This document shows positions 13,341-47,973 of a stretch of DNA of 64,000 bases, piece by piece. The position numbers and the translations under genes are program-made. Where the stretch lies: positions 352,001 to 416,000 of the forward strand of contig CAVXTM010000016.1 in the NCBI GenBank assembly GCA_963764725.1, written 5' to 3'. Under the pieces are notes generated by a model. That model was not told the DNA's origin and did not search any database. It saw only the letters and a program-made list of their open reading frames with translations. The DNA is from an uncultured Gammaproteobacteria bacterium (GTDB lineage Bacteria; Pseudomonadota; Gammaproteobacteria; JACCXJ01). Each line of letters starts with the position of its first letter. The stretch's first letter is position 1.

Positions 13341-13350
13341 GTGGGTATCC

Positions 13351-30061: not shown

Positions 30062-31444
30062 TTATCTCACCTCGGACAAGGTGACAGAGCTGACAGAGCC
30101 TAGTTTTTTACTCAGAATGCTAGCCCCTACAATGATAGGTGAGAGGACTGGGCTGAACGGGGGTGCGTAAGCAAGGTCGGCGTTTTCTAGGTCATAGCAT
30201 GTGAGGTTTCCAAGTAATGCCGTTGCGGCGATGTCTATTATTTTGTCCACGGAGCCCTGTCCGACGGCCTGGGCACCCAATAAGCGCCCGCTAGGGGATT
30301 CGGCCACGAGCTTCAGTGTAAGCTCGCGGGCGTTCGGATAGTAACGCGCCTTATCTCTCGCCGTAATGGTCGCGGCGATCGGTTCAAACCCAGCCTCCCG
30401 AGCCGCAGCCTCGCTGAGCCCCGTTAAAGCCGCATTGAGCTCAAAGGTTTTAACAATAGCCGTCCCCAAGATCCCTGGAAACCGCGCATTCCCGCCGGCT
30501 GCATTCTCCCCAGCGACGCGCCCCTGGAGATTTGCGATATCGCCGAGCGGTCCCCATGTCGGCGATCCCGTCAAGCGATTAAAGCTCTCAACACAATCGC
30601 CGGCAGCAAATACTCCCGGTATGTTGGTCTCCATCCGCGTGTCTACGACAATCGCACCGGTCGACCCGAGACGGATATGACCCTTCGCTGCCAATTCAAC
30701 GTTTGGGCGGATGCCGATGCCAAGGGCCACCAGATCGGTCGGCACCTGCCGACCCGATTCCGTGATGACGGCAGCGACCCGCCCGGTTTCCCCCACGATC
30801 TCGGCTATGCCCTCGCCAAGTACGATACTCACCCCTCTCGAAATTAGATAATCGCGGATCCGCTGACTTAGCTCCGGATCGAGCCTTGGAAAAATCCGAT
30901 CCAACTTGTCAATCAAAGTCAGCGTCATACCCAATGCATATAGGCTCTCTGCGACCTCTAGACCGATATATCCACCTCCAACGATGACTGCTCTTTTTGG
31001 TTTCAATCGTTCGAGTGTGGACGCGAATCGATCCAGATCCTCCATCGTACGCAGAGCGACTACACCGTCCAAATCGATCCCATTAATAGCGGGTACCACA
31101 GGGCGCGCCCCGGTCGCAAGGATCAGGCGATCGTAACTCACAGGCTCGCGAGTGCCGTGATCAAGGTCTTCGACCTCGAGCACCCGATCCCGAGTGTTCA
31201 AGTCCGTGACACGGTGCCGTACCCGTACCGTGATCCCTTCCGCCGCAAATTCAGCGGGGTTACGTATGATGAGCGCATTGCGGGTAGCCACTAGGCCACT
31301 GAGATAGTACGGTTGCCCGCAGGCCGTATAAGAGATCTCGGCCTCCTCTTGATAAAGAGTGATCCCGATCGCTTGATTGAAACGGCGCGCCCTTGCAGCC
31401 GCCTTGGCTCCCGCGGCAACGCCGCCCACGATTACAAGATGCAT
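30062..31444 (-). CDS. CoA-disulfide reductase/NADH oxidase family flavoprotein
   Basis: GGVAAG, single redox Cys in SYTACGQPY, GGGYIG, AAGDC and C-terminal DLAYAPPFSP. Last gene of the CoM operon. Confidence 0.88.
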   Translation of the reverse strand: MHLVIVGGVAAGAKAAARARRFNQAIGITLYQEEAEISYTACGQPYYLSGLVATRNALIIRNPAEFAAEGITVRVRHRVTDLNTRDRVLEVEDLDHGTREPVSYDRLILATGARPVVPAINGIDLDGVVALRTMEDLDRFASTLERLKPKRAVIVGGGYIGLEVAESLYALGMTLTLIDKLDRIFPRLDPELSQRIRDYLISRGVSIVLGEGIAEIVGETGRVAAVITESGRQVPTDLVALGIGIRPNVELAAKGHIRLGSTGAIVVDTRMETNIPGVFAAGDCVESFNRLTGSPTWGPLGDIANLQGRVAGENAAGGNARFPGILGTAIVKTFELNAALTGLSEAAAREAGFEPIAATITARDKARYYPNARELTLKLVAESPSGRLLGAQAVGQGSVDKIIDIAATALLGNLTCYDLENADLAYAPPFSPVLSPIIVGASILSKKLGSVSSVTLSEVR

Positions 31445-31459
31445 GATGCTGCCTCCCGA

Positions 31460-33532
31460 TTAGCCGATCGAGCGCCCCATCGCCACGCGCATTCTGGCGT
31501 CGACGACGTGAAAGCCATGCTCATTGAAAATGACGGGATTGAGGTCTAGCTCCCTCAACCAAGGAACGGACGAGACCCAGACAGACAGCCTCGCGAGTAA
31601 CCCCGCAAGCGTCTGGCGATCGACCGGCGCGGATAACCCCAAACCATCAAGAAACAACGGGCAACGAATATTCATGATCATGCTCAATGCTTCGTCCTCC
31701 CCGAAGGGTGCCAGGCGCATGGTCACGTCGCGAAGCGCGTCGGCCCAGACACCCCCGGGTCCAAAGAGGACCACGGGACCGTAATCCAGGTCTTGGATCG
31801 CCCCCAGCAGCCACTCGCTACCCGCGCTTACCTGCGTTTGGATCAGGTAGGGGCCTGATGTCAAGCCGCGTTCCAGCCGAAGGAGCGTTTCGCCGAGTGC
31901 GTCGTGGTCGGATATGTTTAAGACAACCGCGCCGGCCGTGGACTTGTGCACCAGCCCAGGTCGGATTGCCTTGACAACCACGGGGAACCCAAGCGCAGTG
32001 GCCGCCGTGACGGCTTCTTGTATGTTTTCCACGATTCGGTACGGCACGACCGGAAACCCAGCGCTCTGCAACAACCCAAAGACCTCACCAGTCGCGACCC
32101 ATCCGCCGTCAGTGATGCTCAGCGGTATGGGCAACACCCGGCCACTGTCCTCGACCATCGGATATTGCTGCGGTTCTAGACAATGTGCAAAGGTATTGGC
32201 CGTGTTCCGAGTCCAGGTATGGCAGGGGACACCCGCGCGTACCAGGCGTTCTCGATTCGCTTCGGCATCGCGGCCGGCGACCCAACATACATGCAATGGC
32301 TTTCCACACCCTAAACGCCGTGCATGCTGCAACTCCGCCATAAGCGCTGCCCCCACCTCGGGCGCTAGCGCTGATCGGTGCAACAACACGGCGATGACTG
32401 CATCCACCTCGTCAGACGCAAGTAGGGCGCGCAGGCTCGCGCCGTACATCTCGGGGAAACGCGGCCAATCGGTCGTGACATCAATGGGATTCATGGCACT
32501 TCCATAGGCGGGCAAGTGGCGTCTAATGCGATCCTGCAACGCGCTAGAAAGCGGCGGTACCGCTAGACCTTGCTCTTCAAGCAAGTCCGTCAACTCGACA
32601 CCGACCCCACCCGAGTTAGTAATGATCCCGACACGCCTGCCTTTGAGCGGCGGCTGTTGATCCAGCGCGGCCGCCACATCGAGCAATGATCGACCGTCCG
32701 CGACGACACGCACGCCCGCTTGGCGCAGGGCCGCCTCGGTGATGGCATACTCGTCTGCGAGCGCCGCAGTGTGGCTCGCCGCAGCCCGTTGTGCAGAGCG
32801 GGTGCGGCCTGTCTTTAGGACTATCACGGGTTTTAGTGTCGTCGTTTCGCGGGCTGTCTGATAAAAGGCCCGACCGTCACTGACCGATTCGAGCAACATC
32901 GCAATGACACGGGTCTCGGGATCCTCGCCCAAGAATCTCAAGGCCTCTACTTCGTTGACGTCAGAACGGTTGCCGAGGGCAAGGACCTTCGCAAAGCCAA
33001 TCTCACCCTGCTGCGAGCAGGTAAACGCCGCCATCCCGTAGGCCCCGCTCTGGGTCACCAGCGATACCCCACCCGGTGCGGGTAGCCCGAGACCGAGCGA
33101 GGCGTTGAGCCCGTTACCCGTATTGATGATACCGAAACAATTAGGCCCCACGAGGCGTAGTCCGGCTGCTCCGGCTTTATCGGCGATGCGTTGCTGTACG
33201 CGCGCCCCGTCCGGTCCGGTTTCGGCAAAGCCGCCACTAATGATCACGGCCGCCCTTGCGCCGATTGCAATACACTCGTCGATGACGCCCTCAACCGCTT
33301 GTGGTGGCACGAGTATCACCGCCAGATCAATCGTTTTCGGCGTGTCTGCCAGCGACGAGTAAGCGGTCCGATTCGCTATTGTCCTGCGTGAGGGATTGAC
33401 AAAGTACAGCTCGCCTCTATAGCTCCCCAGCATATTTTGCACGAACAGGTGCCCTAAGCTTCCAGGTTGGTCCGAGGCGCCGATTAGGACGACGCTCTCG
33501 GCAGCAAATATCGATTTTCCCCACTCGTTCAC
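31460..33532 (-). CDS. ADP-forming acyl-CoA ligase (fused alpha/beta subunits)
   Basis: CoA-binding domain (SGGFAE, GPNCFG, TQSGA), phospho-His in AASHT, ATP-grasp (HKS, ELDLNPV). No GNAT domain. GTGA overlap with the upstream stop. Confidence 0.88.
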   Translation of the reverse strand: MNEWGKSIFAAESVVLIGASDQPGSLGHLFVQNMLGSYRGELYFVNPSRRTIANRTAYSSLADTPKTIDLAVILVPPQAVEGVIDECIAIGARAAVIISGGFAETGPDGARVQQRIADKAGAAGLRLVGPNCFGIINTGNGLNASLGLGLPAPGGVSLVTQSGAYGMAAFTCSQQGEIGFAKVLALGNRSDVNEVEALRFLGEDPETRVIAMLLESVSDGRAFYQTARETTTLKPVIVLKTGRTRSAQRAAASHTAALADEYAITEAALRQAGVRVVADGRSLLDVAAALDQQPPLKGRRVGIITNSGGVGVELTDLLEEQGLAVPPLSSALQDRIRRHLPAYGSAMNPIDVTTDWPRFPEMYGASLRALLASDEVDAVIAVLLHRSALAPEVGAALMAELQHARRLGCGKPLHVCWVAGRDAEANRERLVRAGVPCHTWTRNTANTFAHCLEPQQYPMVEDSGRVLPIPLSITDGGWVATGEVFGLLQSAGFPVVPYRIVENIQEAVTAATALGFPVVVKAIRPGLVHKSTAGAVVLNISDHDALGETLLRLERGLTSGPYLIQTQVSAGSEWLLGAIQDLDYGPVVLFGPGGVWADALRDVTMRLAPFGEDEALSMIMNIRCPLFLDGLGLSAPVDRQTLAGLLARLSVWVSSVPWLRELDLNPVIFNEHGFHVVDARMRVAMGRSIG

Positions 33533-35049
33533 CGCAACCAATCACCATCCCCCGCGAAGAAGGCCGGTTGTCCACCCGTATGCACAAATACAACCTTGGG
33601 ATACGATCCGAGCCGCTCGTGCCGCAGACCATCCAGTAATCCAGCCATCGCCTTACCGGTGTAGGTCGGATCAAGCAGCAGACCTTCGGTGCGTCCGACG
33701 AGCCTAATCGCATCCGCAGCCTCTATGCTGGGGATCCCGTAGCCTTCGCCGATAAAGCCGCCGTGCACGATCGCATCCTGGGGGGTAAAGGTCCAATCGA
33801 GACCCAGCAGTGCCGCCGCTTCAGTAGCGAGGCGGGCTACCTCCATCCTTGCCTCTTCTGCCGGACGGCTCACGGTAAAGCTCTCGACGGTCCACGGTGA
33901 TCCCAACGCGCGTGTGCCGAATAACCAGCCGGCGTGAGTGGCGCCCGAGCCGGTGGCCAGCACGATCGCGTCGGGATCAAATTCAAGCGCGCGACACTGC
34001 TCGGAGAGCTCTCGCGCCGCCAACGCATGCCCCAGGGCCCCGAGGGCACAGGCCCCGCCGCGTGGGATGGGATAAGGGCGCTGGCCTTTGTGGCGCAGCT
34101 CCTCACAGAGTGCTTGGATACCGCGATCCACAGAGGCGCGATCCGGGTCGCCCGTGAACACCGCCTCTGCCCCGAGCAGGCGGGTGACGCGGTAATTCCC
34201 GTCGATCCGTGCGGGCGCGTCGCTCCAGAAGACGGCGACACAGCGCAGGCCGTAATGCGCGGCCGCGGCCGCCGTCGCACGGACGTGGTTGGACTGCGCG
34301 CCCGCGCCGGTCACGATGGTGTCGGCACCCTGGCCCAGCGCGTCGGCCACCAGCAGCTCCAGGCCTCGGACCTTGTTGCCCCCAAGGCCAAAGCCGATCA
34401 AATCATCCCGCTTGAACCATATCTCCGAGCCGCCGATCGCCCGGCTGAGTCGCCGCATCGGTGAGAACGGTGTGGGGAATTCAGCCAAGGGCCGGCGCGG
34501 CAGCCGTGCGAGGGCTTCCCATGGGCTGCCATGAAGATCGCGGCGACGTACCTTTTCGCCTCCCTCTCCCGCCGGGAAAGTTGTCCATGGCTCCCCAGGA
34601 GAGTCGCCACAACGTACCGCTCCTTCTCCCTCTGGGAGAGCTTCCAAAGGGATGCCACCAACGTCACTGCAACTTATTCGTTCTTCTCCCTCTCCCACCG
34701 GGAGAGGGTGGGAGTGAGGGGAACTAATCGCTGCGGCAGCCCGTATGGCCTCCAACACAGCATCGGGTTCGCGAAGCACATCATGATTCCAGAATCGCAA
34801 AACCCGATACCCCAAGTTTTGCAAGTATTGACTCCGCTGTTGGTCCTGTTCCGTTCGCTCGGCATGTTGCCCACCGTCAAGTTCGATCACCAGCTTGGAT
34901 TTTAGGCAAAGAAAGTCGGCGATGTAGGGACCGAGAGGTTGCTGCCGCCGGAATTTACAATTCTCCACTTGGCGGTTCCTGAGCCGGCTCCACAACAATT
35001 TTTCGGCATCGGTCTGATGCTGTCGCAGTGTTTTGGCAAGTTGCTTCAT
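33529..35049 (-). CDS. xcbE: DUF559 nuclease domain fused to a D-cysteine desulfhydrase-family PLP enzyme (XcbE-like, CoM biosynthesis)
   Basis: Residues 1-105 are DUF559 (KFRRQ, YIADF, IELDGGQH, VLRFWN). The C-terminal part has KRDDL...GGNKVR, LDPTYTGKAM and FVHTGG. Follows xcbD. Confidence 0.82.
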   Translation of the reverse strand: MKQLAKTLRQHQTDAEKLLWSRLRNRQVENCKFRRQQPLGPYIADFLCLKSKLVIELDGGQHAERTEQDQQRSQYLQNLGYRVLRFWNHDVLREPDAVLEAIRAAAAISSPHSHPLPVGEGEERISCSDVGGIPLEALPEGEGAVRCGDSPGEPWTTFPAGEGGEKVRRRDLHGSPWEALARLPRRPLAEFPTPFSPMRRLSRAIGGSEIWFKRDDLIGFGLGGNKVRGLELLVADALGQGADTIVTGAGAQSNHVRATAAAAAHYGLRCVAVFWSDAPARIDGNYRVTRLLGAEAVFTGDPDRASVDRGIQALCEELRHKGQRPYPIPRGGACALGALGHALAARELSEQCRALEFDPDAIVLATGSGATHAGWLFGTRALGSPWTVESFTVSRPAEEARMEVARLATEAAALLGLDWTFTPQDAIVHGGFIGEGYGIPSIEAADAIRLVGRTEGLLLDPTYTGKAMAGLLDGLRHERLGSYPKVVFVHTGGQPAFFAGDGDWLR

Positions 35050-35107
35050 CGGGATAAAATCCTTCCTTTATCCCCTCACCCTAACCCTCTCCCGAAGGTA
35101 GAGGGGG
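34686..35107. mobile_element. DUF559 cassette bounded by 36-bp inverted palindromic repeats
   Basis: 34686-34721 and 35072-35107 are inverted copies (29/36 identical by eye). Each contains a ccctctccc-N3-gggagaggg hairpin (one mismatch in the right copy). Confidence 0.65.
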
Positions 35108-36527
35108 CTGATTTTTTCGCTCGCCACGATCATCCTCCTGGAAATGCCCTTGACCACGGCCGGGTGACAGCGTCCCCGCTAGGGCCAGCACCCGGTCCAC
35201 CATGTGCGCGCAGCAACCGGTGCTCTGTCCCACGTCGAAGAGGCTCTCGATCCCGGCAACGCCGAGCTGCGCTACGATCTGAGTCTCGGCGAGCACGGCC
35301 TCCCGCAGGGGGGTGCCACGCTCGGCGGCGTCCATCGCCACGCGGTACACGAGCGCATGGGCGCTCTGCTTACCGAGCTTGGGGGCCAAGGCCAACATCA
35401 CGCGCTCGGCCTGAACTAAGCCCTTGGTCGCAAGCAGATTGTCCCACATGCGGTCCACGTTGACCTCAAGGTGTTCGAGTAGATCGTGCAACAGCGCCAA
35501 TACCTTGCCGGTCGCGAGACAAGCCCCGGGAAGGAGCACCCATTCCCCCTTCCATGCCCGCCCATCGCGCTCGTGGTCGTGCACGAGATTCTCGCTCATG
35601 TGCGCGGCCTGATACCGCACCGTGCGGGCCAGCGTGCCCAGGTGCTCGGCGATCTCCGGGTTGCGCTTCTGGGGCATGGTGATGCTGCCGACCGTGCCCG
35701 GCACGAATCCCTCGCTGAGCTTCCCCGATCTCCGGCCGCTGCAGGTTGTAAACCTCGTGCCCGATGCGGTCGGCCGTTGCCGCGATCAGGGCGAGGAGGT
35801 TGAGCCATTCGGCGAGACGATCGCGCGCGGCGGTCCAGGAGATCGCGGGGGCCGTGAGCCCGAGCCTCTCGAGGAAGCGCCGCTGCAGCGCGAGCGCGTC
35901 GGGACCGAAGGAGGAGAGACTGCCGACGCCGCCCGCGAGTTGCCCGACGCCAATGCGCGCGCCGACCTCATCGAGGCGTTGGCGGTGGCGCTGGATCTCA
36001 TCGAGCCACCCGGCGGCCTTGAACCCGAAGGTGATCGGAAGGCCGGGCTGACCGTGGGTGCGGCCGCACATCGGCGTATCCCGATAGCGGCGGGCGAGAT
36101 CGCACAGCACCGTTGCAACGCTTGTGAGCTGGTCTTCAAAGATGTCCCGCACCTTGACCAGAATCCGAGCCGTATGCGTGTCCGTGATGTCCTGCACTGT
36201 CGCCCCGTAACAAAGCCATTCTCCGCTGTCGGCTGGGCAGCGGCGCTGGAGCGCGCGAATAAGACCTAGCAGCGAATGATTGGTCTGCTCGAAGTCTTCG
36301 CGCACTTCGCTAAAAAACGCCTCATCGAGCTGCAGGCGCCCGCAGGCATCGGCGAGTTGGTTAGCCGCCGTCGCGGGGATCAAACCGAATTCCGCCTCCG
36401 TCTCGGCGAGCACCACCATGACCTCGATCCAGCCCGCGGCCAGCGCGGTATCATCGAAGAGGGCACGCAGCTCGAGTGTGGCCCATGAATTTCGATAGAT
36501 CGCTGAGTCGCTAATGTGTACCGACAT
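35081..36527 (-). CDS. xcbD: Adenylosuccinate lyase-like protein (XcbD-like), with one frameshift near 35721
   Basis: GATVQDITDT, GRTHGQPGLPITFG, GSITMPQKRNP and HDHERDG. Removing one base restores EIGELSEGFVPGTVGS. Confidence 0.8.
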
Positions 36528-36684
36528 AGCGATTCGCTACCTCGTTGGGCTCGTTGCTGCTATCAAAGGAGCAGAATGCGCGGATTTGTACGCAAGTACA
36601 GCTACGCCCCCGAGCCGAATCCGACCTCGTTGTGGTTGTTGCTTCCAGTGTCGTTGCAAGTGCAGCACGGTATGTGGTTAACTC

Positions 36685-38244
36685 CTACCCCGAATTGGGG
36701 TTCGAGGCCTCCGAACCCAGCACGCCCGCACGGACCGCCCGTAACAGCGAGTCCTCCGCCATTTGGAGCCGCCGGCCACAGTTGCTGGTCCATGCATCGG
36801 TCTCTGCCAAGGCCCTCTCGCATTCGACAATCATCGCCTCCATGGCCTCGGGCGCCGCGCCCCCCCGTTCGGCGCGTGCCAACACGGCGGCCTCAGGGTC
36901 CAGGGCATCCTGGAGGGCTGCTGGCGAGATCTCGACGCCCTTGCCCAGCACCATCTCCGCGGCCGCCGCCAGCTCATCCGGCGCGAGCTGATTCAAATCA
37001 CCGCTCGCCAGATGCCGGCGCACGAGGTGGCCGACCAGCCAATGTGCTTGGCGAAAGTCGAGACCGCTTTCGAGCACGAGCACTTCGGCGAGATCGGTCG
37101 CGAGCGCGAAGCCGTGGTCGAGCAGGCTGCGCCCACGCTGGCCATTGAATGTCAGAAAGCTCACGACCTCGCCCATGAGCCCCACCGCGTCCTGCGTGTC
37201 CGCAATCGCGCGCGGGATAAGGCCGTAAAGTGGCAGGCGGTTGTCCGGTTGCCCCGACGGCGTTCGACCCAATGCCGCGCTCGCCGCGAGCGTGCCGATC
37301 ATCGTACTGGCTACCCCACGAACGTGCGTCAAGGCAAAGGGGTTTTTCTTCTGAGGCATGATCTTGCTCGCACGCGCGTGCCGATCGTCAAGCTCGACCA
37401 GAGCGAACTCCTCGGTGGCATAGATCTGTAGGTCCTCGGCCAAGCGGTCGAGATTGATCAGGATTGCGGTCAGTATCGCGGCCGCCTCGATCGGCAGATC
37501 CGCCTGCCACATGGCATCGCGTGCATGGATGACAAGCCCATCGAAACCCAGAAGATCGCTCAGGCGGCCGCGGTTTTGTGGCAAGCGCGACCCGTTGGTA
37601 CTACCACATCCCGCGGGACTTTGGTTCACCCGCCCGTAAAACGCTCGAACGCGATCGAGATCACGCAGCACAGGGTAGGCAAAACCAAGCAGATAATGAC
37701 CGAAGGTGGTTGGCTGCGCCGCTCGTAGATAGGTATAGTCGGGCAGCAACGCTGAGCGAAACTGGCGCGCCCGCGCGGTGATCACTTTGCCGGTCGTCGC
37801 CAGCGCCTCAGCCAGGCCGATGAGACCCGCGCGCACCTTGATCAGAAATGCGGTTGTGGTTGCTTCGCGCCGCGCCCGGCCTGCGCCCAACCAAGTGCCC
37901 GCGCCTGTCTGCGTGGCCAACCACGCTTCGCGGTTGGTGTAGAGGTCGCCCCTCGATGGGTCCAAGGTAAAATCAGCGGGTCGTTCGTGAAGTTCCAAGA
38001 GGGCAGCGAGAAGATCCCGACCGGCATCACGCGGAACGATGCCCGCCTCCATCATCGCCAGTGTGTGAGCAAGATCGACCCAGCTCATGGCTTCGAATAG
38101 CTCCGCCTGGTCGTCGAGCTCCCTCTTGAAAGCTGCCTGGATCAGTCGCTCGGAGGGACCACGCTCGAGGCGCGCGCCCACCTTGAGCGCGTGCTCCGAT
38201 ACCGGTGAGGGGCAGTCTGGCTCGCGGCTATTTCTTATCGGCAT
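36685..38244 (-). CDS. xcbC: Argininosuccinate lyase-like protein (XcbC-like)
   Basis: AQPTTFGHYL, LDRLAEDL and the altered signature ASKIMPQKKNP. Overlaps comA. Confidence 0.82.
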   Translation of the reverse strand: MPIRNSREPDCPSPVSEHALKVGARLERGPSERLIQAAFKRELDDQAELFEAMSWVDLAHTLAMMEAGIVPRDAGRDLLAALLELHERPADFTLDPSRGDLYTNREAWLATQTGAGTWLGAGRARREATTTAFLIKVRAGLIGLAEALATTGKVITARARQFRSALLPDYTYLRAAQPTTFGHYLLGFAYPVLRDLDRVRAFYGRVNQSPAGCGSTNGSRLPQNRGRLSDLLGFDGLVIHARDAMWQADLPIEAAAILTAILINLDRLAEDLQIYATEEFALVELDDRHARASKIMPQKKNPFALTHVRGVASTMIGTLAASAALGRTPSGQPDNRLPLYGLIPRAIADTQDAVGLMGEVVSFLTFNGQRGRSLLDHGFALATDLAEVLVLESGLDFRQAHWLVGHLVRRHLASGDLNQLAPDELAAAAEMVLGKGVEISPAALQDALDPEAAVLARAERGGAAPEAMEAMIVECERALAETDAWTSNCGRRLQMAEDSLLRAVRAGVLGSEASNPNSG

Positions 38245-39109: not shown

Positions 39110-40016
39110 ATTCCACACCCCGCGAGAGGAGACCAAGAGCCTGTTCGACCATCGGAAGGTCGGCGCCCCAGGGAACCACCGCCGTCATGTCGTCTTGTTC
39201 AATGCCAAATTCTAACAGGCAGCATTTGAGGAGGGTGGGGCGAGTTGATGTTGGCGCGAGCTTCCGAGGACACATCTCCACGCGCGGGGGCTCATCCCCG
39301 TAGTAATGCCGGTGGAACTGGAGGCTGCGTTCGCAGCCGATCAGGGTCCAGGGGCGGCGCACGGGGGGACGCTCATCGAGAAAGTACACGGGCGCTCCGA
39401 GCTCATCGAGACCGCCCGAGCGGCAGGGTACGAGATAAGCCTCGGGCTGAACCTGCCTACAAAGCTCGCGGAGGTCGATGCGCTCGAGCTCGAGACAGAT
39501 GGGCGGGAGATCGGCATAGCTCAGGACGTGCTCGGCCATTTTGTAGAGCTTCGGCGGATCCGGCGGAGCGACCTCGACGACCCGCAGGATCATAGGATCG
39601 GGGTGGTGGATGATGTTGATATGATCGAATGTGCCTTGAACGACGACCGTCCGATCCGACCCGAGGCGGTGCTTACGAGCGAGCATGGCGAGCGCCGAGC
39701 GGTTGGCCGGATCGGTCTCGGGTGATTGTATGAATACACAATCAGCGGGCAAGGCCAGTACCTCTACGGCCTCGACACGGGTGAACAGCGCGTCCGATTC
39801 GGCCCGCTGCACCGCTGCCACGGCCAGTTGATGATCTGCATTATGTAAGACCACGACATCGGTGCGCCGGTAGACCTCGCGTGATAGCAAATGTGTTTCG
39901 ATAGCCGCCTCGGTCATGGCTCCTTCATATGGCTGAAAGCTCACTCGGCGATAGGGTAGAGGCACGAAGTTGTTCTGCCACTTGAGACTCCCGACCTTGA
40001 GCACTTCGCCGCCCAT
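39102..40016 (-). CDS. Cys-rich conserved protein upstream of comA (XcbA-like)
   Basis: Cys motifs VPCRS, IGCERSLQFH, EMCPR and KCCLLE; 8-nt overlap with comA. The assignment rests on synteny with xcbABCDE. Confidence 0.65.
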   Translation of the reverse strand: MGGEVLKVGSLKWQNNFVPLPYRRVSFQPYEGAMTEAAIETHLLSREVYRRTDVVVLHNADHQLAVAAVQRAESDALFTRVEAVEVLALPADCVFIQSPETDPANRSALAMLARKHRLGSDRTVVVQGTFDHINIIHHPDPMILRVVEVAPPDPPKLYKMAEHVLSYADLPPICLELERIDLRELCRQVQPEAYLVPCRSGGLDELGAPVYFLDERPPVRRPWTLIGCERSLQFHRHYYGDEPPRVEMCPRKLAPTSTRPTLLKCCLLEFGIEQDDMTAVVPWGADLPMVEQALGLLSRGVEYA

Positions 40017-40032
40017 ACCCTTCGTCTGTCGT

Positions 40033-40887
40033 TCAGGCCAGCGTAAACCTACGCGCTTGGTCCGCGGGCCTTAGCTCCCGCTCATGGATCCGTAACGGGT
40101 CCAGGCCGCGGATAAACTCCACCATCTCCGGTGTAGGTAGAGGGACCAGGCTGAGGTCCTCGCGTACCGGAAACGCGAAACCCGTATTCTCGCGCACCTC
40201 GGCGACATCGATATCCGGGTAAACCCCGGCGAGCCGCGCGTGGCCAGAGTCATCGAAATCGAAGACCCCAAGCTCGGTGACGAGGCTATCGGGGCCCTTC
40301 CCCCGATATCGCATCTCGGACCGGGTTTTTCCCTCGGCGGTACGATGCCCCACGCTCGTAATGAAATCACAGCCTTCGACCAGCCGAAACCGGCGTCGGC
40401 CTTTCGGGTCGGGCGCCGCCCGGTGTGCGGCGGTCCAAATAGTCACATGCTGCACGTCACAGGACAGATTGCAGCCGCCACCCCCGCCCGGCAGCTTGAG
40501 CTGCAGTTGCTCTCGCCCGACGCGGGTCACGTTCATGTTGCCCCAGCGGTCGATCTGTAGACCGGAGAGAAACATTCGGCCCACGCGCCCGCTCGCCGCA
40601 AGGTCAAACAGCTCTTCGATGCCGAGGTGGCATTCCGCTCCGCGGTTCATCACCCAGTCGTTGGTGGTTGGGGCGAGAAATGGGGGTGTGGGGTTCACCC
40701 CATAGGTAGCGCCGGCAATGAGGACCAGATCGGGGGCGTGGGTCTTTTTCGCGAGGTGCAGTGCGAGTTGCACGAGCGGTGAGCCGAAGCCGTGGAAGGC
40801 CACGATCCCGTCTTCGATCGTCCGAGTGATCTGATAGATCATTACCTCACCGAAGGTACAGGTTATGGGTGTGGAGCGATCACGCAT
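40033..40887 (-). CDS. CoA transferase beta subunit (GctB/CatJ-like)
   Basis: FLSGLQIDRWGNMN, LPGGGGG, VTELGVFDF and VRENTGF. ATG overlaps the alpha-subunit stop. Confidence 0.88.
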   Translation of the reverse strand: MRDRSTPITCTFGEVMIYQITRTIEDGIVAFHGFGSPLVQLALHLAKKTHAPDLVLIAGATYGVNPTPPFLAPTTNDWVMNRGAECHLGIEELFDLAASGRVGRMFLSGLQIDRWGNMNVTRVGREQLQLKLPGGGGGCNLSCDVQHVTIWTAAHRAAPDPKGRRRFRLVEGCDFITSVGHRTAEGKTRSEMRYRGKGPDSLVTELGVFDFDDSGHARLAGVYPDIDVAEVRENTGFAFPVREDLSLVPLPTPEMVEFIRGLDPLRIHERELRPADQARRFTLA

Positions 40888-41800
40888 ACAGATCCATCCA
40901 AGGGCGCGAGCCCTGCTTCCAGGAGGCGAGGAATTTGAGCGCCTCTGCGCCCCCGATAGCCTCCAGGTATTCGGCGTGCGAGGGACAGCCATAGACGTAG
41001 GGCTGCAGGTAAAGATCACGAAATGCGGCCGCGCCGTCGCTCGCAAAGCGGTGGTACTCGGCGGTGTGCTGGCGATCGTAGGCATAGAACGGATAGCACG
41101 CGGTTGGGTGTGCTCCGTACGGGACCTCGGCCAACGCCGTGACGTAGAAATAGGGGATGGTCGTGCCCGCTTCCGTGAGCTGCTCGGGCGGCACGATCTT
41201 CTCAACCGTCGCGATCACCTTTTTAGATGCCTTGGCGAACAGGACGTCGGCGACGGGTGGCCCCTGGATCTGCAGATTGCCGTGCGCGTCGCCATAGTGA
41301 GCATGCAGAATCGCGACATCGGGCTGGAGCGCGGGCACGAGGACCAGCTCTTCCCCGGTGAACGGACAGAGTATGGTCTTGTAGTCCGGATCAATGTGCA
41401 TGAACCCCGTACCCCGCACCGAGCGGATAGGCATGAATGGCAGACCGGCAATCGCGGCGCGCAGCTGCTGCACCAGGGTATAACAACAGCTGTCCCGCAC
41501 CTCGACCGCCCCGGACTCGCAGGCGCGCCGATAATTAGGAGCCATCCCGAAGTCCTGTTCGAATCCCACGTAAGATTCGGCACTCACGGCCACGGCACCC
41601 GCCCCGCAGAGCAGGTCTACATCGATTCCATGCGCCGAGCCCACGAGCTTGAGGCCCTTGATCTGCTGCCGCACGAGCTCACGCAGAGCTGCCATGGGCT
41701 CGCGCCAGGACAGGCCACCGCCGATGGCAACGCAATCGCCCTCGCGTACGTGCGCGACCAAACTAGGGAGGTCACAGCGCTTGTCGGCTTGGGTGTACAT
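40880..41800 (-). CDS. CoA transferase alpha subunit (GctA/CatI-like)
   Basis: GDCVAIGG, REPMAALREL, GLPFMP, CPFTGE, PALQPDVAILHA and PYGAHP. Confidence 0.88.
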   Translation of the reverse strand: MYTQADKRCDLPSLVAHVREGDCVAIGGGLSWREPMAALRELVRQQIKGLKLVGSAHGIDVDLLCGAGAVAVSAESYVGFEQDFGMAPNYRRACESGAVEVRDSCCYTLVQQLRAAIAGLPFMPIRSVRGTGFMHIDPDYKTILCPFTGEELVLVPALQPDVAILHAHYGDAHGNLQIQGPPVADVLFAKASKKVIATVEKIVPPEQLTEAGTTIPYFYVTALAEVPYGAHPTACYPFYAYDRQHTAEYHRFASDGAAAFRDLYLQPYVYGCPSHAEYLEAIGGAEALKFLASWKQGSRPWMDLYA

Positions 41801-41806
41801 CGCTGT

Positions 41807-42586
41807 TCAGATCGCGGTCATGCCGCCATCGACGCAAAAGACGGCACCGGATATGAAGCTGGCCTCGTCGGAGGCGAGGAACAGCGCGGCCTGCGCTATC
41901 TCCTCCGGTCGGCCAAACCGACCGATAGGGTATTTGGCCAGCTTCGCCTGGGTTTCTGCGGTAGTGTCGCGCTCCAGGATCTGTCGATCGAGAGCAGTGC
42001 CCGCCACTCTTCCCGGGCATAAGCAATTCACCCGAACGCCGAGGGCGGTGTAATCGGCTGCCATCTGCCTGGTGAGCCCGATGACCGCCGCCTTCGAAGC
42101 ACAGTAGGCGGCCATCCTCGGGAACCCAATGACGCCGGCTATGGAGGCGATGTTGATGATAGCTCCCCCGTGTTGCTTCATCTGTGACAGTACGGCTTGG
42201 GAGCACAAAAACGTCCCAGTGACGTTGACGGCCATGATGCGTTCCCAGGAATCGGCGGTGGCGTCCTCGACGCTGCCAAACTCCGCGATACCTGCATTGT
42301 TGACAAGCACGTGGACCATGCCGGCATCGTGAGTAATGATCTTCCCAAACGTCTCCGCGACGCCTCGCGCATCGGCCACATCGACGCAGAAGGCAGCGGC
42401 GTCCATCCCCTCTTTGCGCAGCTCGACTTCGGTCTTTTCGACCAATGGCCCATCGCGATCCAGAATCGACATACGCGCACCTTCGCGGCCAAACAGGCGG
42501 GCTATTGCAAGCCCAATCCCGGAACCACCCCCGGTAATGATCGCATTCTTATTGGCTAATCTCGCCGCCAGGCTCGGCTTCTCCAT
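41807..42586 (-). CDS. SDR, 2-hydroxyalkyl-CoM dehydrogenase (XecE/S-HPCDH-like)
   Basis: TGGGSGIG, NNAG and YCASK. TRQMAADY...CPGxVAGT...KLAKYPIGRFG...VDGGMTAI recalls S-HPCDH, including the basic sulfonate-binding positions. Confidence 0.8.
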   Translation of the reverse strand: MEKPSLAARLANKNAIITGGGSGIGLAIARLFGREGARMSILDRDGPLVEKTEVELRKEGMDAAAFCVDVADARGVAETFGKIITHDAGMVHVLVNNAGIAEFGSVEDATADSWERIMAVNVTGTFLCSQAVLSQMKQHGGAIINIASIAGVIGFPRMAAYCASKAAVIGLTRQMAADYTALGVRVNCLCPGRVAGTALDRQILERDTTAETQAKLAKYPIGRFGRPEEIAQAALFLASDEASFISGAVFCVDGGMTAI

Positions 42587-42590
42587 GAGT

Positions 42591-44159
<1,569 letters not shown>

Positions 44160-44239
44160 TCAAACAAGCGAGCGAAGAGTGGACTGGCCGCATTCGTTTC
44201 GTGAACCTCAACAGTCTCGACGGTGATTTAGCACCCGAA

Positions 44240-44455
44240 TTAATGGAGCCTCGCACCTCCCCCATTGCAACATGGGCAACCCGCCCCATGTCGCACTTCA
44301 AGCGGATGCGGAACAGGGACCGAGTCCGCGCGTATCTGTGCCCGATCCCCGCCGCACTGCGAGCAGATCCACTTCTCGGGCTCGCGGGTACCGGCGAAGA
44401 CCATGCCGCCAAAGCGATAGCCACAGTCGGGGCACAGGAGTTGATAGATCGGCAT
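44240..44455 (-). CDS. FmdB-family zinc-ribbon protein
   Basis: MPIYQLLCPDCGYRF...WICSQCGG...GCPCC. Confidence 0.8.
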   Translation of the reverse strand: MPIYQLLCPDCGYRFGGMVFAGTREPEKWICSQCGGDRAQIRADSVPVPHPLEVRHGAGCPCCNGGGARLH

Positions 44456-44499
44456 CGTGTGATACTTACGCGAAACCCGACATTGGACGGGTTGACGCG

Positions 44500-45618
44500 T
44501 CAAGCGGCCTTCTTGCCCAGCTCCGCCCGCACCAACTCTGTCCCCTGCACTAACGCGTGCAGCTTGTCGATGGCAATGTAGCGCTGCAGCAGGATCAGAC
44601 CGCAGTCGGTCGTGACCCCGAGACGCTGGGCCGGTACCACCTGCAAAAGCCGCCGGATCCGATCCGCGACCTGCTCTGCAGTTTCCGTGATCGTGCTCTT
44701 GACATCGATTACTCCCGCCCAGAAACAGACATTGTCTGGCAGCGGGTGGGCCTTCATGATCTCGAGGCCGCTCATATCGTCGCTCCGGCGGCCACAGTTC
44801 TCGAGATTCAAGACATTGATGCGCGCTTGGTAGGCCTTCGGCACCACGGAGCCTGTGGCCGCGGGTTCCTTGCCGCGTCGCTTGCTCAGGTCGAAGATCT
44901 CGCCCGCCTTAGCCGTATCGTCCGGCAAGTAAGCTGGTGTGCCTCCCCAGTTTCCCCAACACACATGGACGACGATCTGGGCATTCTTGACGCCCTCCAC
45001 GGCGCGATTGAATGCCTCGACTGCCCAATTTTCAAATCCGTAGGGCCAGGTAAACTCGTCTAACTGAATAAAATCGACGCCGAGGGCATCCACTTCCCGC
45101 AGGTCTTCATTGATCGCCGCGGCAATCGCCATGGCCCGATCACGTGAGGATTTGTAATGCAGGTCATTGGTCGCCTGAGCCAGGACCTGAATACCGGTGT
45201 ATTGGATCTTGATAGGCTTCCGGGTCGCTCGCTTCAGTGCCCGCGCCTGTTCCACCATAATGGCGCCGCGCCGTTTGACTTCTTGGTCCAAGGTCCCGGC
45301 GTGCAGGCGGCTGTAGATGGGAAAGCCAAGATAACCGCCCTTGAGGTTATATCCCAGGCGCCGGTAGTAGTAATAGACTGCCTGGTCGGCATAGTTGTCG
45401 CCGTGCACCCGCCCGTCAGCGATGATGTCGAGCCCAGCGTTCTCTTGGTCCCTGGCGATGGCCGCGACCGCATCCTCCAAGGCCTCGCGCATCAGGGCAT
45501 CCGGGGGTTCTTGGTCGCCGGTAAAGTCCCGCGCAAACTCGGCGTCCCACCATCTCGGATTCGGGTAGTTTCCCACCATGCTGGTCGGGATAAGTATTTC
45601 TTGATTACGAATTTTCAC
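44500..45618 (-). CDS. etnE: Epoxyalkane:coenzyme M transferase (EtnE/XecA, MetE-like Zn enzyme)
   Basis: VGNYPNPRWWD, DGRVHGDNY, GFPIYSRLHAG, Zn ligands HVCWGN and TTDCG, AGVIDVKS; strong AGGAGGAGG ribosome-binding site; CoM gene context. Confidence 0.92.
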   Translation of the reverse strand: MKIRNQEILIPTSMVGNYPNPRWWDAEFARDFTGDQEPPDALMREALEDAVAAIARDQENAGLDIIADGRVHGDNYADQAVYYYYRRLGYNLKGGYLGFPIYSRLHAGTLDQEVKRRGAIMVEQARALKRATRKPIKIQYTGIQVLAQATNDLHYKSSRDRAMAIAAAINEDLREVDALGVDFIQLDEFTWPYGFENWAVEAFNRAVEGVKNAQIVVHVCWGNWGGTPAYLPDDTAKAGEIFDLSKRRGKEPAATGSVVPKAYQARINVLNLENCGRRSDDMSGLEIMKAHPLPDNVCFWAGVIDVKSTITETAEQVADRIRRLLQVVPAQRLGVTTDCGLILLQRYIAIDKLHALVQGTELVRAELGKKAA

Positions 45619-45687
45619 CGTTGTCTCCTCCTCCTAGGACAGCTCACCTATGGTCATCCAAGCGGCAGGGATTTGCAAGGACTAGTA

Positions 45688-45705
45688 TTTGTTTATCTTT
45701 GTTAT
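45688..45705. promoter_or_regulatory. AT-rich direct repeat upstream of etnE (candidate operator)
   Basis: tttgtttat-c-tttgttat, two copies with starts 10 bp apart. Shares TGTTAT with the palindrome at 48012-48029. Confidence 0.4.
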
Positions 45706-45741
45706 TCTTCGCTAATCAGATTGACTGGACCGTTTTGCGAG

Positions 45742-46551
45742 CTACGGTCCCAGGGTTTCGACACTGCTAAGCCCAGCGACCAGCCGGTCCGGCAACTGGA
45801 TGCGTGGGTGGAGGCACAGGGATTCGAAGATGGTCACAGCCGGAAACGCTTCTAGCGAATACTGGCAGACGATAGTCACTCCCGGAAGCCGGCGTAGCTG
45901 TGCATCGAGCTGCGCCTCATAGCTTAGGAGCTGCTCGTAGCCCGGCGCACCGCGCGTCGCCCATGACATCTCACCGGTCAACAAGAGCCGCATAGCGTTC
46001 TTCTTTCGAGCCCGAGCGATCTCAGTCTCCCAAAAGCGGAGCATGCGAGCGGAATCGAAAGACCCGTTACGCAGATAGGACTTCGACGCTGGAATTAAGC
46101 GGAGTAAACCTCGTGAGATTGAGGACGCAGCCTCCAAGCCTTCGGAACGGAGCCAGGCGTGTACCCGGGCTTCCCCATCTTCCCCATCGCAGAGATAGAC
46201 CGTAGCGGTCCCGGGACGGAGATGCGACAACAGGTACGGCGCGAGTAACCGCCACTGCTGTTCAACGGTCTTGAAGTTTATGCAAACATGCTGCGGGAGT
46301 TTCTCCCGCATCGCGGTTGTCAGCGACTCCGCTGCCGGCGCGGTTAGCGGGTTGGGGTGCAGGATCTCGGCGCCAGGAGGCGAGCGCACAAACGCTAACA
46401 GATGATCCAGCTTGAAGCGGCGTTCATGGCGGTGGCCGACGCGATAGCAAGGCAGTTTTCCGTTAGCCGTCCAGCGACGTAGCGAGGTTTTGCTAACCTT
46501 TAAGAATGCGGCTGCTTCGTTGATAGTTAGGAATCCCTGGGGGTCTGGCAT
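45742..46551 (-). CDS. DcmR-like regulator: excisionase/MerR-type HTH plus MEDS sensor domain
   Basis: LTINEAAAFLKVSKTSLRRW...ERRF, then HVC, YLRNGSFD, LTGEMSW, YEAQL, VCQY and LHP. Confidence 0.85.
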   Translation of the reverse strand: MPDPQGFLTINEAAAFLKVSKTSLRRWTANGKLPCYRVGHRHERRFKLDHLLAFVRSPPGAEILHPNPLTAPAAESLTTAMREKLPQHVCINFKTVEQQWRLLAPYLLSHLRPGTATVYLCDGEDGEARVHAWLRSEGLEAASSISRGLLRLIPASKSYLRNGSFDSARMLRFWETEIARARKKNAMRLLLTGEMSWATRGAPGYEQLLSYEAQLDAQLRRLPGVTIVCQYSLEAFPAVTIFESLCLHPRIQLPDRLVAGLSSVETLGP

Positions 46552-46560
46552 ATCTACAGG

Positions 46561-47973
46561 TCACTTTCCGTATTTGTCCCAGTGGCCTCGGAAGAGGGTT
46601 TGCTCGCTGATCACGCGTGCCTGGATCGGCCGCGAGACCCAGGTCAAGTTGATAAAGTGTCTGGCATTGACGTTTTCGGTGGTGATATTACCACCCCACG
46701 TGCCACAGCTTAGGCTTAGGGTATAGGGAAGCCCATTTCTGGGGCTACCGGCACCCTCGTTGAGATTCTGATTGACCAGGATCCGCCCAGTCTTAGTTCC
46801 GTAAGCCAACGCCATCACATGCTCATCCGAGCGCGTGTGAATCCCGCACGTGTGACCGCGTCCCTGATAATTAGTAATCGTGTTGACCAGTTTGACCGCA
46901 TTCTGGATCCCTCCTTCGTAGCGGTACAGCGCTAACACGACCGATAATTTTTCGCCCGAGAAGGGATACTCAGGCCCCACTCCGCTCTCCTCTACCACGA
47001 GGAAACTTCGGTCACCCGGCATCGTGATGCCCGCCATACGCGCGATCTGCCCCGCAGCTTTTGCAATCACAGCGACAGAGGGAATCGATGAAGCGGGATC
47101 CGGCCACATGAGCCTTTGCAGGTTGGCCTTTTCGTTCGAGTTGCACACATAAGCGCCGTTGGCAACCAAGGTCGCGGTCAAGTCATCGTAGATTTCTGCG
47201 GCGGCGACTACGGCATTGTCGGCAAGGCAACTGGTCGCACAGTCAAAGGTCTTTGCCGTCGCGATCGCTCGCGCTGCGTCCTCGAGGTCCGCGGTCTCAT
47301 CAACGACATGGACGGTGTTCCCCACACCCACCCCGTACGCCGGGGTCCCAGAACTGTAAGCGGCCTTGACCATCCCCTCCCCGCCAGTCGCAACGATCAG
47401 ATCGGCCTGGCGCATGAGCTCTTGGGTCTTGACCAGCGATGGCTTGTCGACGATCTGGACGAGATCGGCCGGGGCGCCGACCTGCTCGCAGGCTTCGCGC
47501 ATGTACTGAACCGCTAGCGCCGTGGTCTTCTGGGTGCGCGGGTGGGCAGCGATGACGATGGCGTTACGCCCTTTCAGGACCAACAAGGCCTTAAGCGGTG
47601 GCGTTGCATCGGGTCCAGTCGTGGGAATCAGGGCAGCGACCACCCCGACCGGTTTAGCGATCTTGACCAGTCCTCGCTCGGCAATCTCCTCGACAAGGCC
47701 GACCGTCTTGACGTTCGCGATATCCGCCAATGTACCCATGATGCGATTTCGAATCTTGGTCACTTTGTCGTGATAGTTTCCGAAACCGCCTTCATCCACC
47801 GCGAGCTTTGCCAGGGCCTCGGCCCGCTCCTGGCGCACCACTGACCAGGCCACCGCCGCGGTCAGATCATCGACCTGTTGCTGGGAGTATCCCTCGATGG
47901 CCTCATGAGCCCGTCTTGCTCGTCTGACCAAGTCCCCGATGACAACGGCTGTGTTCGTATTCTCAGAACTCAA
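46561..47973 (-). CDS. CoA-acylating aldehyde dehydrogenase (SauS/AdhE-N-like)
   Basis: KPVGVVAALIP, ATGG, AYSSGTPAYGVGVGN, catalytic Cys in ATSC, SGEKLS, GHTCGIH and CGTWGGN. TTG start. Confidence 0.88.
   Translation of the reverse strand: MSSENTNTAVVIGDLVRRARRAHEAIEGYSQQQVDDLTAAVAWSVVRQERAEALAKLAVDEGGFGNYHDKVTKIRNRIMGTLADIANVKTVGLVEEIAERGLVKIAKPVGVVAALIPTTGPDATPPLKALLVLKGRNAIVIAAHPRTQKTTALAVQYMREACEQVGAPADLVQIVDKPSLVKTQELMRQADLIVATGGEGMVKAAYSSGTPAYGVGVGNTVHVVDETADLEDAARAIATAKTFDCATSCLADNAVVAAAEIYDDLTATLVANGAYVCNSNEKANLQRLMWPDPASSIPSVAVIAKAAGQIARMAGITMPGDRSFLVVEESGVGPEYPFSGEKLSVVLALYRYEGGIQNAVKLVNTITNYQGRGHTCGIHTRSDEHVMALAYGTKTGRILVNQNLNEGAGSPRNGLPYTLSLSCGTWGGNITTENVNARHFINLTWVSRPIQARVISEQTLFRGHWDKYGK

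Follow-up and report, generated by a model that had tools for sequence, protein, structure and literature searches.

What role does a compact block of coenzyme M (CoM) genes play in an uncultured gammaproteobacterium, and is that block a self-contained pathway for a C2 epoxide? The window analyzed here is a stretch of 64,000 nt from an uncultured Gammaproteobacteria bacterium (GCA_963764725.1, contig CAVXTM010000016.1, positions 352,001-416,000, forward strand). Open reading frames were identified by Pfam and NCBIfam profile searches; 16 minus-strand ORFs of the interval 30062-47973 were queried, and 15 of them had a family match.

Gene content and identity of the epoxide transferase

The initial annotation had described 15 co-oriented genes in this interval as a cluster for CoM-dependent epoxide metabolism and CoM biosynthesis. 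All lie on the minus strand, their earlier identities match the Pfam and NCBIfam results, and these identities support the assignment (Table 1). Many of the genes had also been called overlapping; three possible overlaps were seen, and several neighbors are separated by gaps of 4-16 nt. Wider intergenic gaps precede EtnE (123 nt) and xcbD (157 nt). A 102-aa ORF (44116-44424) was considered as the zinc-ribbon gene and rejected, as it had no family match and an Arg/Ser-rich translation. A GMC oxidoreductase gene just outside the interval is a conserved 16th neighbor: copies 66-82% identical to it adjoin the aldehyde dehydrogenase (ALDH) or CoADR gene in six other loci. Both profile collections assign the CoA transferase to the 3-oxoacid/glutaconate type, and the best-scoring ALDH model, NF047625, represents acylating sulfoacetaldehyde dehydrogenase.

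Table 1. Features of the cluster and its flank; positions are counted from the first nucleotide of the window.
Feature	Position	Strand	Evidence
GMC oxidoreductase (choline-dehydrogenase-like)	48179..49789	-	Pfam GMC_oxred_N/C; NCBIfam PRK02106 603.9 bits (cut-off 605)
CoA-acylating aldehyde dehydrogenase, SauS/EutE-like	46561..47973	-	NF047625 518.6 bits (cut-off 600); TIGR02518 336.7 bits
HTH (excisionase/MerR-type) + MEDS sensory-domain regulator	45742..46551	-	PF12728 (HTH_17), PF14417; 128.4 bits
EtnE, epoxyalkane:CoM transferase (2-hydroxypropyl-CoM lyase family)	44500..45618	-	PF01717; 297/371 identical to Xanthobacter versatilis plasmid record
FmdB-type zinc-ribbon protein, 71 aa, MPIYQLLCPDCG...	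44240..44455	-	PF09723 E 2.5e-8, 34.2 bits (cut-off 34.4)
2-KPCC orthologue (predicted CoM thioether reductase, DSOR flavoprotein), Phe-Tyr dyad	42591..44150	-	730 bits to 1mo9_A
Short-chain dehydrogenase (SDR)	41807..42586	-	Best PDB match 4gh5/4itu, 265 bits
CoA transferase subunit A	40880..41800	-	PF01144 92.5 bits
CoA transferase subunit B, with ATG 40842 as chosen start	40033..40842	-	PF01144 23.8 bits
XcbA family protein, Cys-rich (8 Cys)	39102..40016	-	NF052538 484.9 bits (cut-off 150); DUF7714 282 bits
XcbB/ComA phosphosulfolactate synthase, likely start ATG 39109	38228..39136	-	TIGR03849 294.8 bits (cut-off 280)
XcbC (phosphate elimination from phosphosulfolactate, predicted)	36685..38244	-	NF052535 731.4 bits (cut-off 575)
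XcbD, interrupted by one extra base at 35720	35081..36527	-	Two pieces, 426.5 + 251.6 bits (cut-off 600)
Inserted element, 655 nt, with flanking hairpin repeats	34529..35183	-	Absent at the xcbE junction of five other loci
DUF559 (Vsr-like endonuclease) gene inside insert	34720-35049	-	PF04480 144.5 bits
XcbE body	33529..34528	-	NF052537 510.2 bits (cut-off 450), residues 180-499 of 506-aa ORF
ADP-forming acyl-CoA ligase, alpha + beta parts fused	31460..33541	-	PF13380, PF13607, PF19045, PF13549
CoA-disulfide-reductase-like (CoADR-like) flavoprotein	30062..31444	-	TIGR03385 398.7 bits (cut-off 578.8); Cys42 in YTACG

EtnE has the MetE-type catalytic domain, and the question arose whether it is a generic MetE. 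This reading was rejected: EtnE shows 80% identity to the plasmid-borne Xanthobacter enzyme, recorded as '2-hydroxypropyl-CoM lyase', as against a score of just 127 bits with the closest MetE of known structure (3rpd), and is by sequence a true relative of the epoxyalkane:CoM transferases. H218-V-C220 and C339, presumably the zinc ligands, align with the Xanthobacter protein. Assignment of EtnE has been based on an identity gap between >65% and <35% (Toppings et al., 2024; PMC11507031), and the value found here exceeds the >65% level that separates the epoxyalkane:CoM transferases (EC 4.4.1.23). The tree places EtnE in a clade of 17 rows (SH-aLRT 95), most of them records labelled Methylococcales. 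A scan of species-representative genomes placed its relatives in 233 stretches; their distribution is wide and takes in Beta- and Gammaproteobacteria, Chloroflexota and Myxococcota. EtnE was found in 5 of the 15 species genomes of the host's family, which fits the patchy, laterally transferred pattern of earlier literature. The expectation that automatic annotation would hide the cluster was half right: JGI names remain of the metE type, but NCBIfam has models for XcbA, XcbC, XcbD and XcbE, and some NCBI records read '2-hydroxypropyl-CoM lyase'.

No compositional island signal was found, since the window contains no tRNA genes and the cluster, with a GC content of 0.58-0.65, does not stand out from its flanks. 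Promoter and terminator scans were at chance level (5 found versus 5.7 expected, and 17 versus 15.3). In an empty-site search for the island insertion, the flanking SIR2 gene was matched in four of eight same-genus genomes; because the match runs to a contig end in three of these four, no empty insertion site could be demonstrated. Relative to locus L005, dN/dS was 0.07-0.32 for all cluster genes except the zinc ribbon (0.57), which indicates purifying selection on every gene of the cluster in this comparison.

Coenzyme M biosynthesis genes

All five xcbA-E families are present and adjacent. XcbA family, ComA, XcbC and XcbE scored above the model cut-offs, and XcbD was recognized in two pieces. 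In Xanthobacter, XcbA is reported to carry out the final reductive step of CoM synthesis (PMC9457059). Not all of the reading frames are intact. XcbD is split over two frames, with 35466-36527 covering profile positions 1-273 and 35081-35704 covering 272-443; the extra base corresponds to a 1-nt gap in all four aligned relatives. The start of xcbE is displaced by the insert: junction alignment and start analysis place the native start, GTG 35127, upstream of it together with some 8 codons, and the 506-aa ORF (33529-35049) reads from a DUF559 domain (residues 2-104) through into XcbE. Parts of the insert have 18 other matches in the genome. As assembled, CoM synthesis thus appears to be interrupted at xcbD and xcbE, so the island is not self-contained in the sense first proposed.

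It could be argued that the cluster is decaying here, a relic in which CoM is no longer made and the pathway is dead or relies on CoM from outside. The frameshift affects the genome's only xcbD (no second copy scored above the cut-off), the insert parts xcbE from both its start and its ribosome-binding context, with no spare xcbE in the genome, and the AcrB gene in the same window is split too. However, in the comparison with L005 the XcbD pieces (dN/dS 0.11 and 0.15) and XcbE (0.18) do not exceed the values of their neighbors, so any inactivation would be recent. The xcbD frameshift may be an assembly error, and XcbE is in frame with the DUF559 ORF. Furthermore, a metagenome contig about 90% alike crosses the xcbE-DUF559 junction without gaps, which indicates that this arrangement persists in a relative. 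On balance we regard decay as an unlikely explanation of the cluster.

The reductase and the fate of the carbon

The initial annotation had taken the single dehydrogenase, together with the CoA enzymes, to point to an achiral C2 epoxide. Restriction to C2 is weakened by the two enzymes downstream of EtnE. The SDR gave 265 bits to 4gh5/4itu, compared with 139 bits to 2cfc (titled 2-(R)-hydroxypropyl-CoM dehydrogenase), in overall similarity; we take 4gh5 to be the Xanthobacter S-hydroxypropyl-CoM dehydrogenase (S-HPCDH). Over its full length the reductase is orthologous to 2-KPCC, matching 1mo9_A over residues 9-516. Its CPHHAC motif (residues 80-85) aligns to CPHNAC of 2-KPCC, and the redox-active CxxxxC pair (Cys82/Cys87 in 2-KPCC) and the DSOR fold are present. 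It has been shown that 2-KPCC carries a Phe501-His506 dyad in place of the DSOR His-Glu, and that His506 is linked to the binding of CO2 and the production of acetoacetate (PMC8358701). The reductase of the cluster lacks this carboxylation dyad: its FLNPSY aligns to FLNPTH, with the Phe kept and His506 replaced by Tyr.

Such similarities raise the question of whether propylene oxide, and not the achiral C2 epoxide, is the main substrate of the module. The route would then be that of Xanthobacter, via hydroxypropyl-CoM and 2-ketopropyl-CoM to acetoacetate, which the CoA transferase would activate. pMMO epoxidises propylene, the best matches of EtnE, the reductase and the SDR are in each case Xanthobacter-type chains or records, and the type of the CoA transferase agrees with this route. 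Against it, the single SDR would leave one epoxypropane enantiomer stranded, and the residue associated with acetoacetate formation is Tyr. In addition, expression of the homologous cluster of Methylohalobius crimeensis is reported to be induced by ethylene (Toppings et al., 2024; PMC11507031). We consider a primary role in propylene oxide metabolism unlikely.

The Tyr-for-His506 replacement is not confined to this locus. It was found in 8 of 46 readable loci, all within the methanotroph-type clade, and, within a large protein collection, in 78 of the 119 close homologues that could be read. Two papers on the 2-KPCC dyad make no mention of homologues, and the second none of orthologues or phylogeny either. 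We put forward, as a tentative and less probable reading, that these reductases form a sister group of 2-KPCC, large and so far undescribed, that does not fix CO2: 2-oxoethyl-CoM might be cleaved and the enolate protonated, with Tyr as the donor or at least without a CO2/carboxylate pocket, and the resulting acetaldehyde might be converted to acetyl-CoA by the adjacent acylating ALDH. The published C2 route, itself hypothetical, passes through malonate semialdehyde (PMC8727900); the putative carboxymethyl-CoM route of the initial annotation differs from it. Steps beyond hydroxyalkyl-CoM are likewise presented as hypothetical in the available literature (PMC11507031; PMC8727900).

Host, epoxide source and relation to known clusters

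The host had been predicted to be proteobacterial and not actinobacterial, and this was borne out. The genome contains three AMO/PmoA-type loci, one of them without an adjacent pmoC and one split, and a complete pmoC-A-B operon. Against the 1yew chain set PmoA scored 404 bits, whereas 3chx gave 330 and ammonia monooxygenase 250. Judged by its genes, the organism is a gammaproteobacterial-type pMMO methane oxidizer. No soluble di-iron monooxygenase was detected in a PF02332 search of the genome (96.9% complete); the same search matched four of five other EtnE-bearing genomes. No alkene monooxygenase was found within the window. With none in window or genome, the epoxide would have to come from pMMO, and the label 'self-contained' fails on this count as well.

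The same gene set has been described in M. crimeensis, and among 150 methanotroph genomes 14 carried it; it was interpreted as a system for the detoxification of epoxyethane arising from co-oxidation by pMMO (Toppings et al., 2024; PMC11507031). A host outside the Actinobacteria is therefore not novel. As far as the published description goes, the cluster shares with those of M. crimeensis 10Ki and other methanotrophs EtnE, the SDR, CoA transferase A/B, an NDP-forming acyl-CoA synthetase, the CoADR-like reductase, an E3-like (2-KPCC-like) reductase, a sulfoacetaldehyde-dehydrogenase-like ALDH, the MEDS regulator, and ComA, ArgH-like, PurB-like and DcyD-like genes, together with a pMMO host lacking alkene monooxygenase (PMC11507031). 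It is collinear with the clusters of Methylolobus aquaticus FWC3 and Methylotetracoccus oryzae C50C1, both listed in that survey (PMC11507031). Several differences were observed. The 2-KPCC-like gene is co-oriented and directly follows EtnE here, but in M. crimeensis it is encoded on the other strand; the XcbA-family, zinc-ribbon and GMC oxidoreductase genes are absent from the 13-gene list of the earlier study; and the present lineage is uncultured and lies outside its 150 cultured genomes (PMC11507031). The damage to xcbD and xcbE is a further difference from the M. crimeensis-type cluster. Our literature search on this lineage found no paper pairing the upland soil cluster with coenzyme M transferase, and the combination of epoxyalkane, methanotroph and cave returned Toppings et al. 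(2024) alone.

Two other systems are instructive. The xecA-E and xcbA-E genes on pXAUT01 of Xanthobacter autotrophicus Py2 (propylene/epoxypropane carboxylation) share the closely similar EtnE, the full-length 2-KPCC and the xcbA-B-C-D-E order; in contrast, the present cluster has no alkene monooxygenase, one SDR in place of an R/S pair and a Phe-Tyr in place of a Phe-His dyad, and includes the CoA transferase, ligase and acylating ALDH within the operon. The etn clusters of Mycolicibacterium JS60 and L1 and of Nocardioides JS614 (ethene/vinyl chloride) are reported to share the single SDR, CoA transferase A/B, acyl-CoA synthetase, CoADR, MEDS regulator and CoM genes adjoining etnE (PMC8727900). 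Unlike the cluster studied here, they carry etnABCD and support growth, and identities to the actinobacterial proteins are much lower; EtnE of M. crimeensis is given as 47% identical to that of JS60 (PMC11507031). Growth of the present organism on ethene or propene, with the cluster fed by an unrecognized monooxygenase or by one of the extra pMMO-like copies, is favored by the presence of three AMO/PmoA-type loci but is highly improbable given the negative PF02332 search and the published methanotroph case, in which ethylene inhibited rather than supported growth (PMC11507031).

With the cluster and pMMO present and a dedicated alkene monooxygenase absent, we conclude that the locus is probably the CoM-dependent module for epoxide disposal that earlier work described in aerobic methanotrophs. 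We infer each catalytic step after EtnE, as well as the substrate (C2 or C3) and the regulation, and the scheme would run as follows. pMMO would unavoidably co-oxidize ethylene (and propylene) to the epoxide, EtnE would open the epoxide ring with CoM, and the SDR would oxidize hydroxyalkyl-CoM to the oxo form. Reductive C-S cleavage by the 2-KPCC orthologue would regenerate CoM, and the acylating ALDH, CoA transferase and ADP-forming ligase may direct the carbon to acetyl-CoA. CoM itself would be made from phosphoenolpyruvate, sulfite and cysteine by the products of xcbB, xcbC, xcbD, xcbE and xcbA. The CoADR-like flavoprotein may keep the thiol pool reduced, and the HTH-MEDS protein is the putative regulator; in M. 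crimeensis, neither counterpart was ethylene-induced (PMC11507031).

These results extend the published epoxide-detoxification module of methanotrophs to an uncultured pMMO lineage. The Phe-Tyr dyad offers a concrete handle on the step that frees the carbon from CoM in the C2 pathway, and on whether these reductases fix CO2. If our proposal for the Tyr-bearing reductases is correct, the acetaldehyde route would be shorter than the hypothetical malonate semialdehyde route, and '2-oxopropyl-CoM reductase (carboxylating)' would be the wrong name for most database members of the family.

Gene content of the coenzyme M cluster

The minus strand at 30062-47973 holds a tight run of genes, and their Pfam and NCBIfam assignments bear out, gene for gene, the list given in the initial annotation (Table). 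All five xcb families are present and are ordered A to E as named. According to Wu et al. (2022, PMC9457059), the steps are sulfite addition to PEP by XcbB, phosphate elimination by XcbC, and cysteine addition by XcbD; XcbE catalyzes decarboxylation and thioaldehyde release, and XcbA, a Cys-rich [2Fe-2S] protein, reduces the thioaldehyde to coenzyme M (CoM). A 102-aa ORF at 44116-44424 was rejected as a gene; the zinc ribbon sits in another frame. A GMC oxidoreductase gene (48179-49789) was found directly upstream of the range initially annotated; copies 66-82% identical adjoin the ALDH or CoADR gene at 5 of 80 genome-contig loci and at the comparison locus L088.

Table. Genes of the CoM epoxide cluster, listed by window position
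Product	Position	Strand	Remark
SauS-like CoA-acylating aldehyde dehydrogenase (ALDH)	46561-47973	-	first in transcription order
HTH + MEDS regulator	45742-46551	-	
EtnE, epoxyalkane:CoM transferase	44500-45618	-	
FmdB-type zinc ribbon, 71 aa	44240-44455	-	
Disulfide-oxidoreductase (DSOR) flavoprotein, 2-KPCC orthologue	42591-44150	-	
SDR	41807-42586	-	
CoA transferase A	40880-41800	-	
CoA transferase B	40033-40842	-	
XcbA family / DUF7714	39102-40016	-	
ComA/XcbB	38228-39136	-	
XcbC	36685-38244	-	
XcbD	35081-36527	-	read in two frames
XcbE	33529-34528 + upstream remnant	-	
ADP-forming acyl-CoA ligase	31460-33541	-	
CoA-disulfide-reductase-like flavoprotein (CoADR)	30062-31444	-	last in transcription order

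EtnE is identical at 297 of 371 positions (80%) to a protein, named 2-hydroxypropyl-CoM lyase by NCBI and UniRef, on a 316-kb plasmid of Xanthobacter versatilis; we take this plasmid to be the Py2 megaplasmid and its lyase the Py2 copy. The His218-x-Cys220 motif and Cys339 are retained, and the best solved MetE reached only 127 bits. The flavoprotein aligned end to end with Xanthobacter 2-KPCC (1mo9, 730 bits), with the CxxxxC pair present. The best solved relative of the SDR was 4gh5/4itu (265 bits), compared with 139 bits for the R-specific 2cfc; 4gh5 is presumably the S-specific hydroxypropyl-CoM dehydrogenase.

Host genome and proposed pathway

Gram-negative envelope functions encoded in the window include AcrB/OEP efflux and MdoG/MdoH. 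A cyclic glucan synthase-like ORF of 1859 aa with GH94 supersandwich and catalytic domains (13246-18825, plus strand) is placed between two MdoG genes and an MdoH-like glycosyltransferase gene. No match to Phenol_Hydrox (soluble di-iron monooxygenase) was detected in the host genome (4.21 Mb, 19 contigs, 96.9% complete); the same search matched four of five other EtnE-bearing genomes, the exception being the methanotroph Methylotetracoccus oryzae. Three sites have AMO/PmoA matches, with the match split at one (a PmoA-like gene in two on contig C3), and a complete pmoC-A-B operon was present at one of the three. Scores for PmoA were 404 bits against the 1yew chain set, 390 against 6cxh, 330 against 3chx, and about 250 against ammonia monooxygenases. 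With these PDB entries taken as references for enzyme type, the predicted product is a gammaproteobacterial-type methane monooxygenase. In a second pmoA-pmoB pair, about 73 kb past the end of the window (L002, G000:C16:487349-491047), an MRJP-family gene occupies the expected place of pmoC.

Methylohalobius crimeensis is described as possessing a 13-gene cluster of the same components, induced by ethylene, without an alkene monooxygenase; the cluster was interpreted as detoxifying epoxyethane that particulate methane monooxygenase (pMMO) forms through co-oxidation, and similar clusters were reported for 14 of the 150 genomes of cultured methanotrophs surveyed, with a scatter implying lateral transfer (Toppings et al., 2024, PMC11507031). 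Two strains of that survey are Methylolobus aquaticus FWC3 and Methylotetracoccus oryzae C50C1 (PMC11507031), and both clusters (L007 and L016) are collinear with that of the window. The CoM epoxide and CoM-synthesis gene set proposed initially is confirmed, and its initial interpretation is supported in part; the novelty claimed for it does not stand, as the same cluster has been published (PMC11507031). The window cluster is a further example of a known module, in an uncultured methanotroph lineage; new here are the apparent xcbD and xcbE lesions and the reductase Phe-Tyr dyad.

Judged from gene content, the best reading, and quite a likely one, is that the published detoxification model applies to this cluster. 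An epoxide would be formed by pMMO and conjugated to CoM by EtnE, the conjugate would be oxidized by the SDR, and the 2-KPCC orthologue would cleave the thioether and free CoM; the ALDH, CoA transferase, and ligase would then lead to acetyl-CoA. Of these elements, the analysis shows only what the genes encode and that no alkene monooxygenase is present. The initial annotation had suggested a route through carboxymethyl-CoM, which differs from the published hypothetical C2 route via malonate semialdehyde, malonate, and malonyl-CoA (PMC8727900); both are proposals. The three core enzymes each have their closest match among Xanthobacter-type chains or records, so the substrate may instead be C3.

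Apparent lesions in xcbD and xcbE

The CoM arm carries two apparent lesions. In xcbD, one extra base at 35720, directly upstream of the GSxxMPxKxNP loop, was observed in all four comparisons (aligned with L005, L010, L006, and L011). Relatives' contigs in four metagenome runs mostly lack one base at 35720-35722 (deletion depths 34.4/51.6, 35.2/61.3, 1068/1090, and 24.9/24.9). The extra base may be a real mutation or an assembly error; the window's own sequence occurred in no sequencing run (top share of sampled words, 0.17).

The second lesion is an insert of 655 nt (34529-35183, minus strand) missing from L005 (56 nt there instead), L010, L016, L007, and L006. It holds a DUF559 (Vsr-like) endonuclease-like gene flanked on either side by GGGAGAGGG-type hairpin repeats; the repeat (about 38 nt) has about 16 copies elsewhere in the genome, which also holds two diverged DUF559 copies. 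Hairpin bins showed very high depth in four metagenomes. The insert interrupts xcbE after about its eighth codon. What starts at the native GTG 35127 is now a stub of 19 codons, and the XcbE body is readable only as the tail of a 506-aa DUF559 ORF or by initiation at an internal GTG or TTG. At 33529-35049 (minus strand) no stop codon interrupts the roughly 75 codons of repeat-derived linker from DUF559 to XcbE. This open frame may mean that the fusion is tolerated or that translation of the two is coupled. Most of the linker, together with the xcbE junction, is spanned without gaps (34434-34996) by a metagenome contig of about 90% similarity; the insert is therefore shared by a relative.

No second copy of xcbD or xcbE was found in the genome. 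Against L005, the two XcbD pieces had dN/dS values of 0.11 and 0.15 and XcbE one of 0.18, inside the range of the other enzymes (0.07-0.32); if function has been lost at all, the loss is therefore recent. Elsewhere in the same 64 kb, a second AcrB-family gene (2893-5980, plus strand) is broken into a pair of overlapping ORFs (2893-3837, profile positions 3-191; 3506-5980, positions 206-1020), an apparent second frameshift.

Distribution and the reductase dyad

Of 253 candidate stretches from species-representative genomes, 233 were confirmed to carry an EtnE relative. In a quick maximum-likelihood tree of 79 of the 80 kept loci and the Xanthobacter protein (L046, with no single long match, was omitted; midpoint-rooted, without outgroup), the window falls in a clade of 17 rows, most of them labelled Methylococcales (SH-aLRT 95), and adjoins L005, a MAG labelled Chromatiales. 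Within the host's family, EtnE was present in 5 of 15 species genomes, the window's own counted, a number that leans partly on unpublished data because G008 and G014, which belong to the five, have not been published.

In six Methylococcaceae-type loci (L006, L008, L009, and L051-L053) the CoA transferase directly follows EtnE. No 2-KPCC-like or SDR gene lies within the available stretch of these loci, an absence that is not established because flank lengths differ. After xcbE, a CoADR-like gene was seen in L006, L051, and L052, and a GMC gene in L051 and L052. The six loci hint at alternative enzyme pairs. In three unpublished relatives of the same genus (G008, G012, and G014; loci L097-L100) contigs end inside a SIR2 gene flanking the cluster, which suggests that the boundary is variable or repeat-rich there.

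It has been reported that in 2-KPCC the DSOR His-Glu dyad is replaced by F501-L-N-P-T-H506, that the Phe keeps protons off the enolate, and that His506 forms the CO2/carboxylate pocket, H506E shifting the product to acetone (Prussia et al., 2021, PMC8358701). The window reductase reads F-L-N-P-S-Y. Among 54 loci with a reductase homologue, 46 were readable at this site; Tyr was found in eight (L005, L007, L010-L014, and L016), all within the methanotroph-type EtnE clade, and His in the other 38. The best 120 homologues in a large protein collection, a list skewed towards the query, gave 78 Tyr and 41 His among 119 readable. A narrow search of the literature on the 2-KPCC dyad found no mention of the Phe-Tyr variant. 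This dyad is the one feature of the cluster that merits a bench test.
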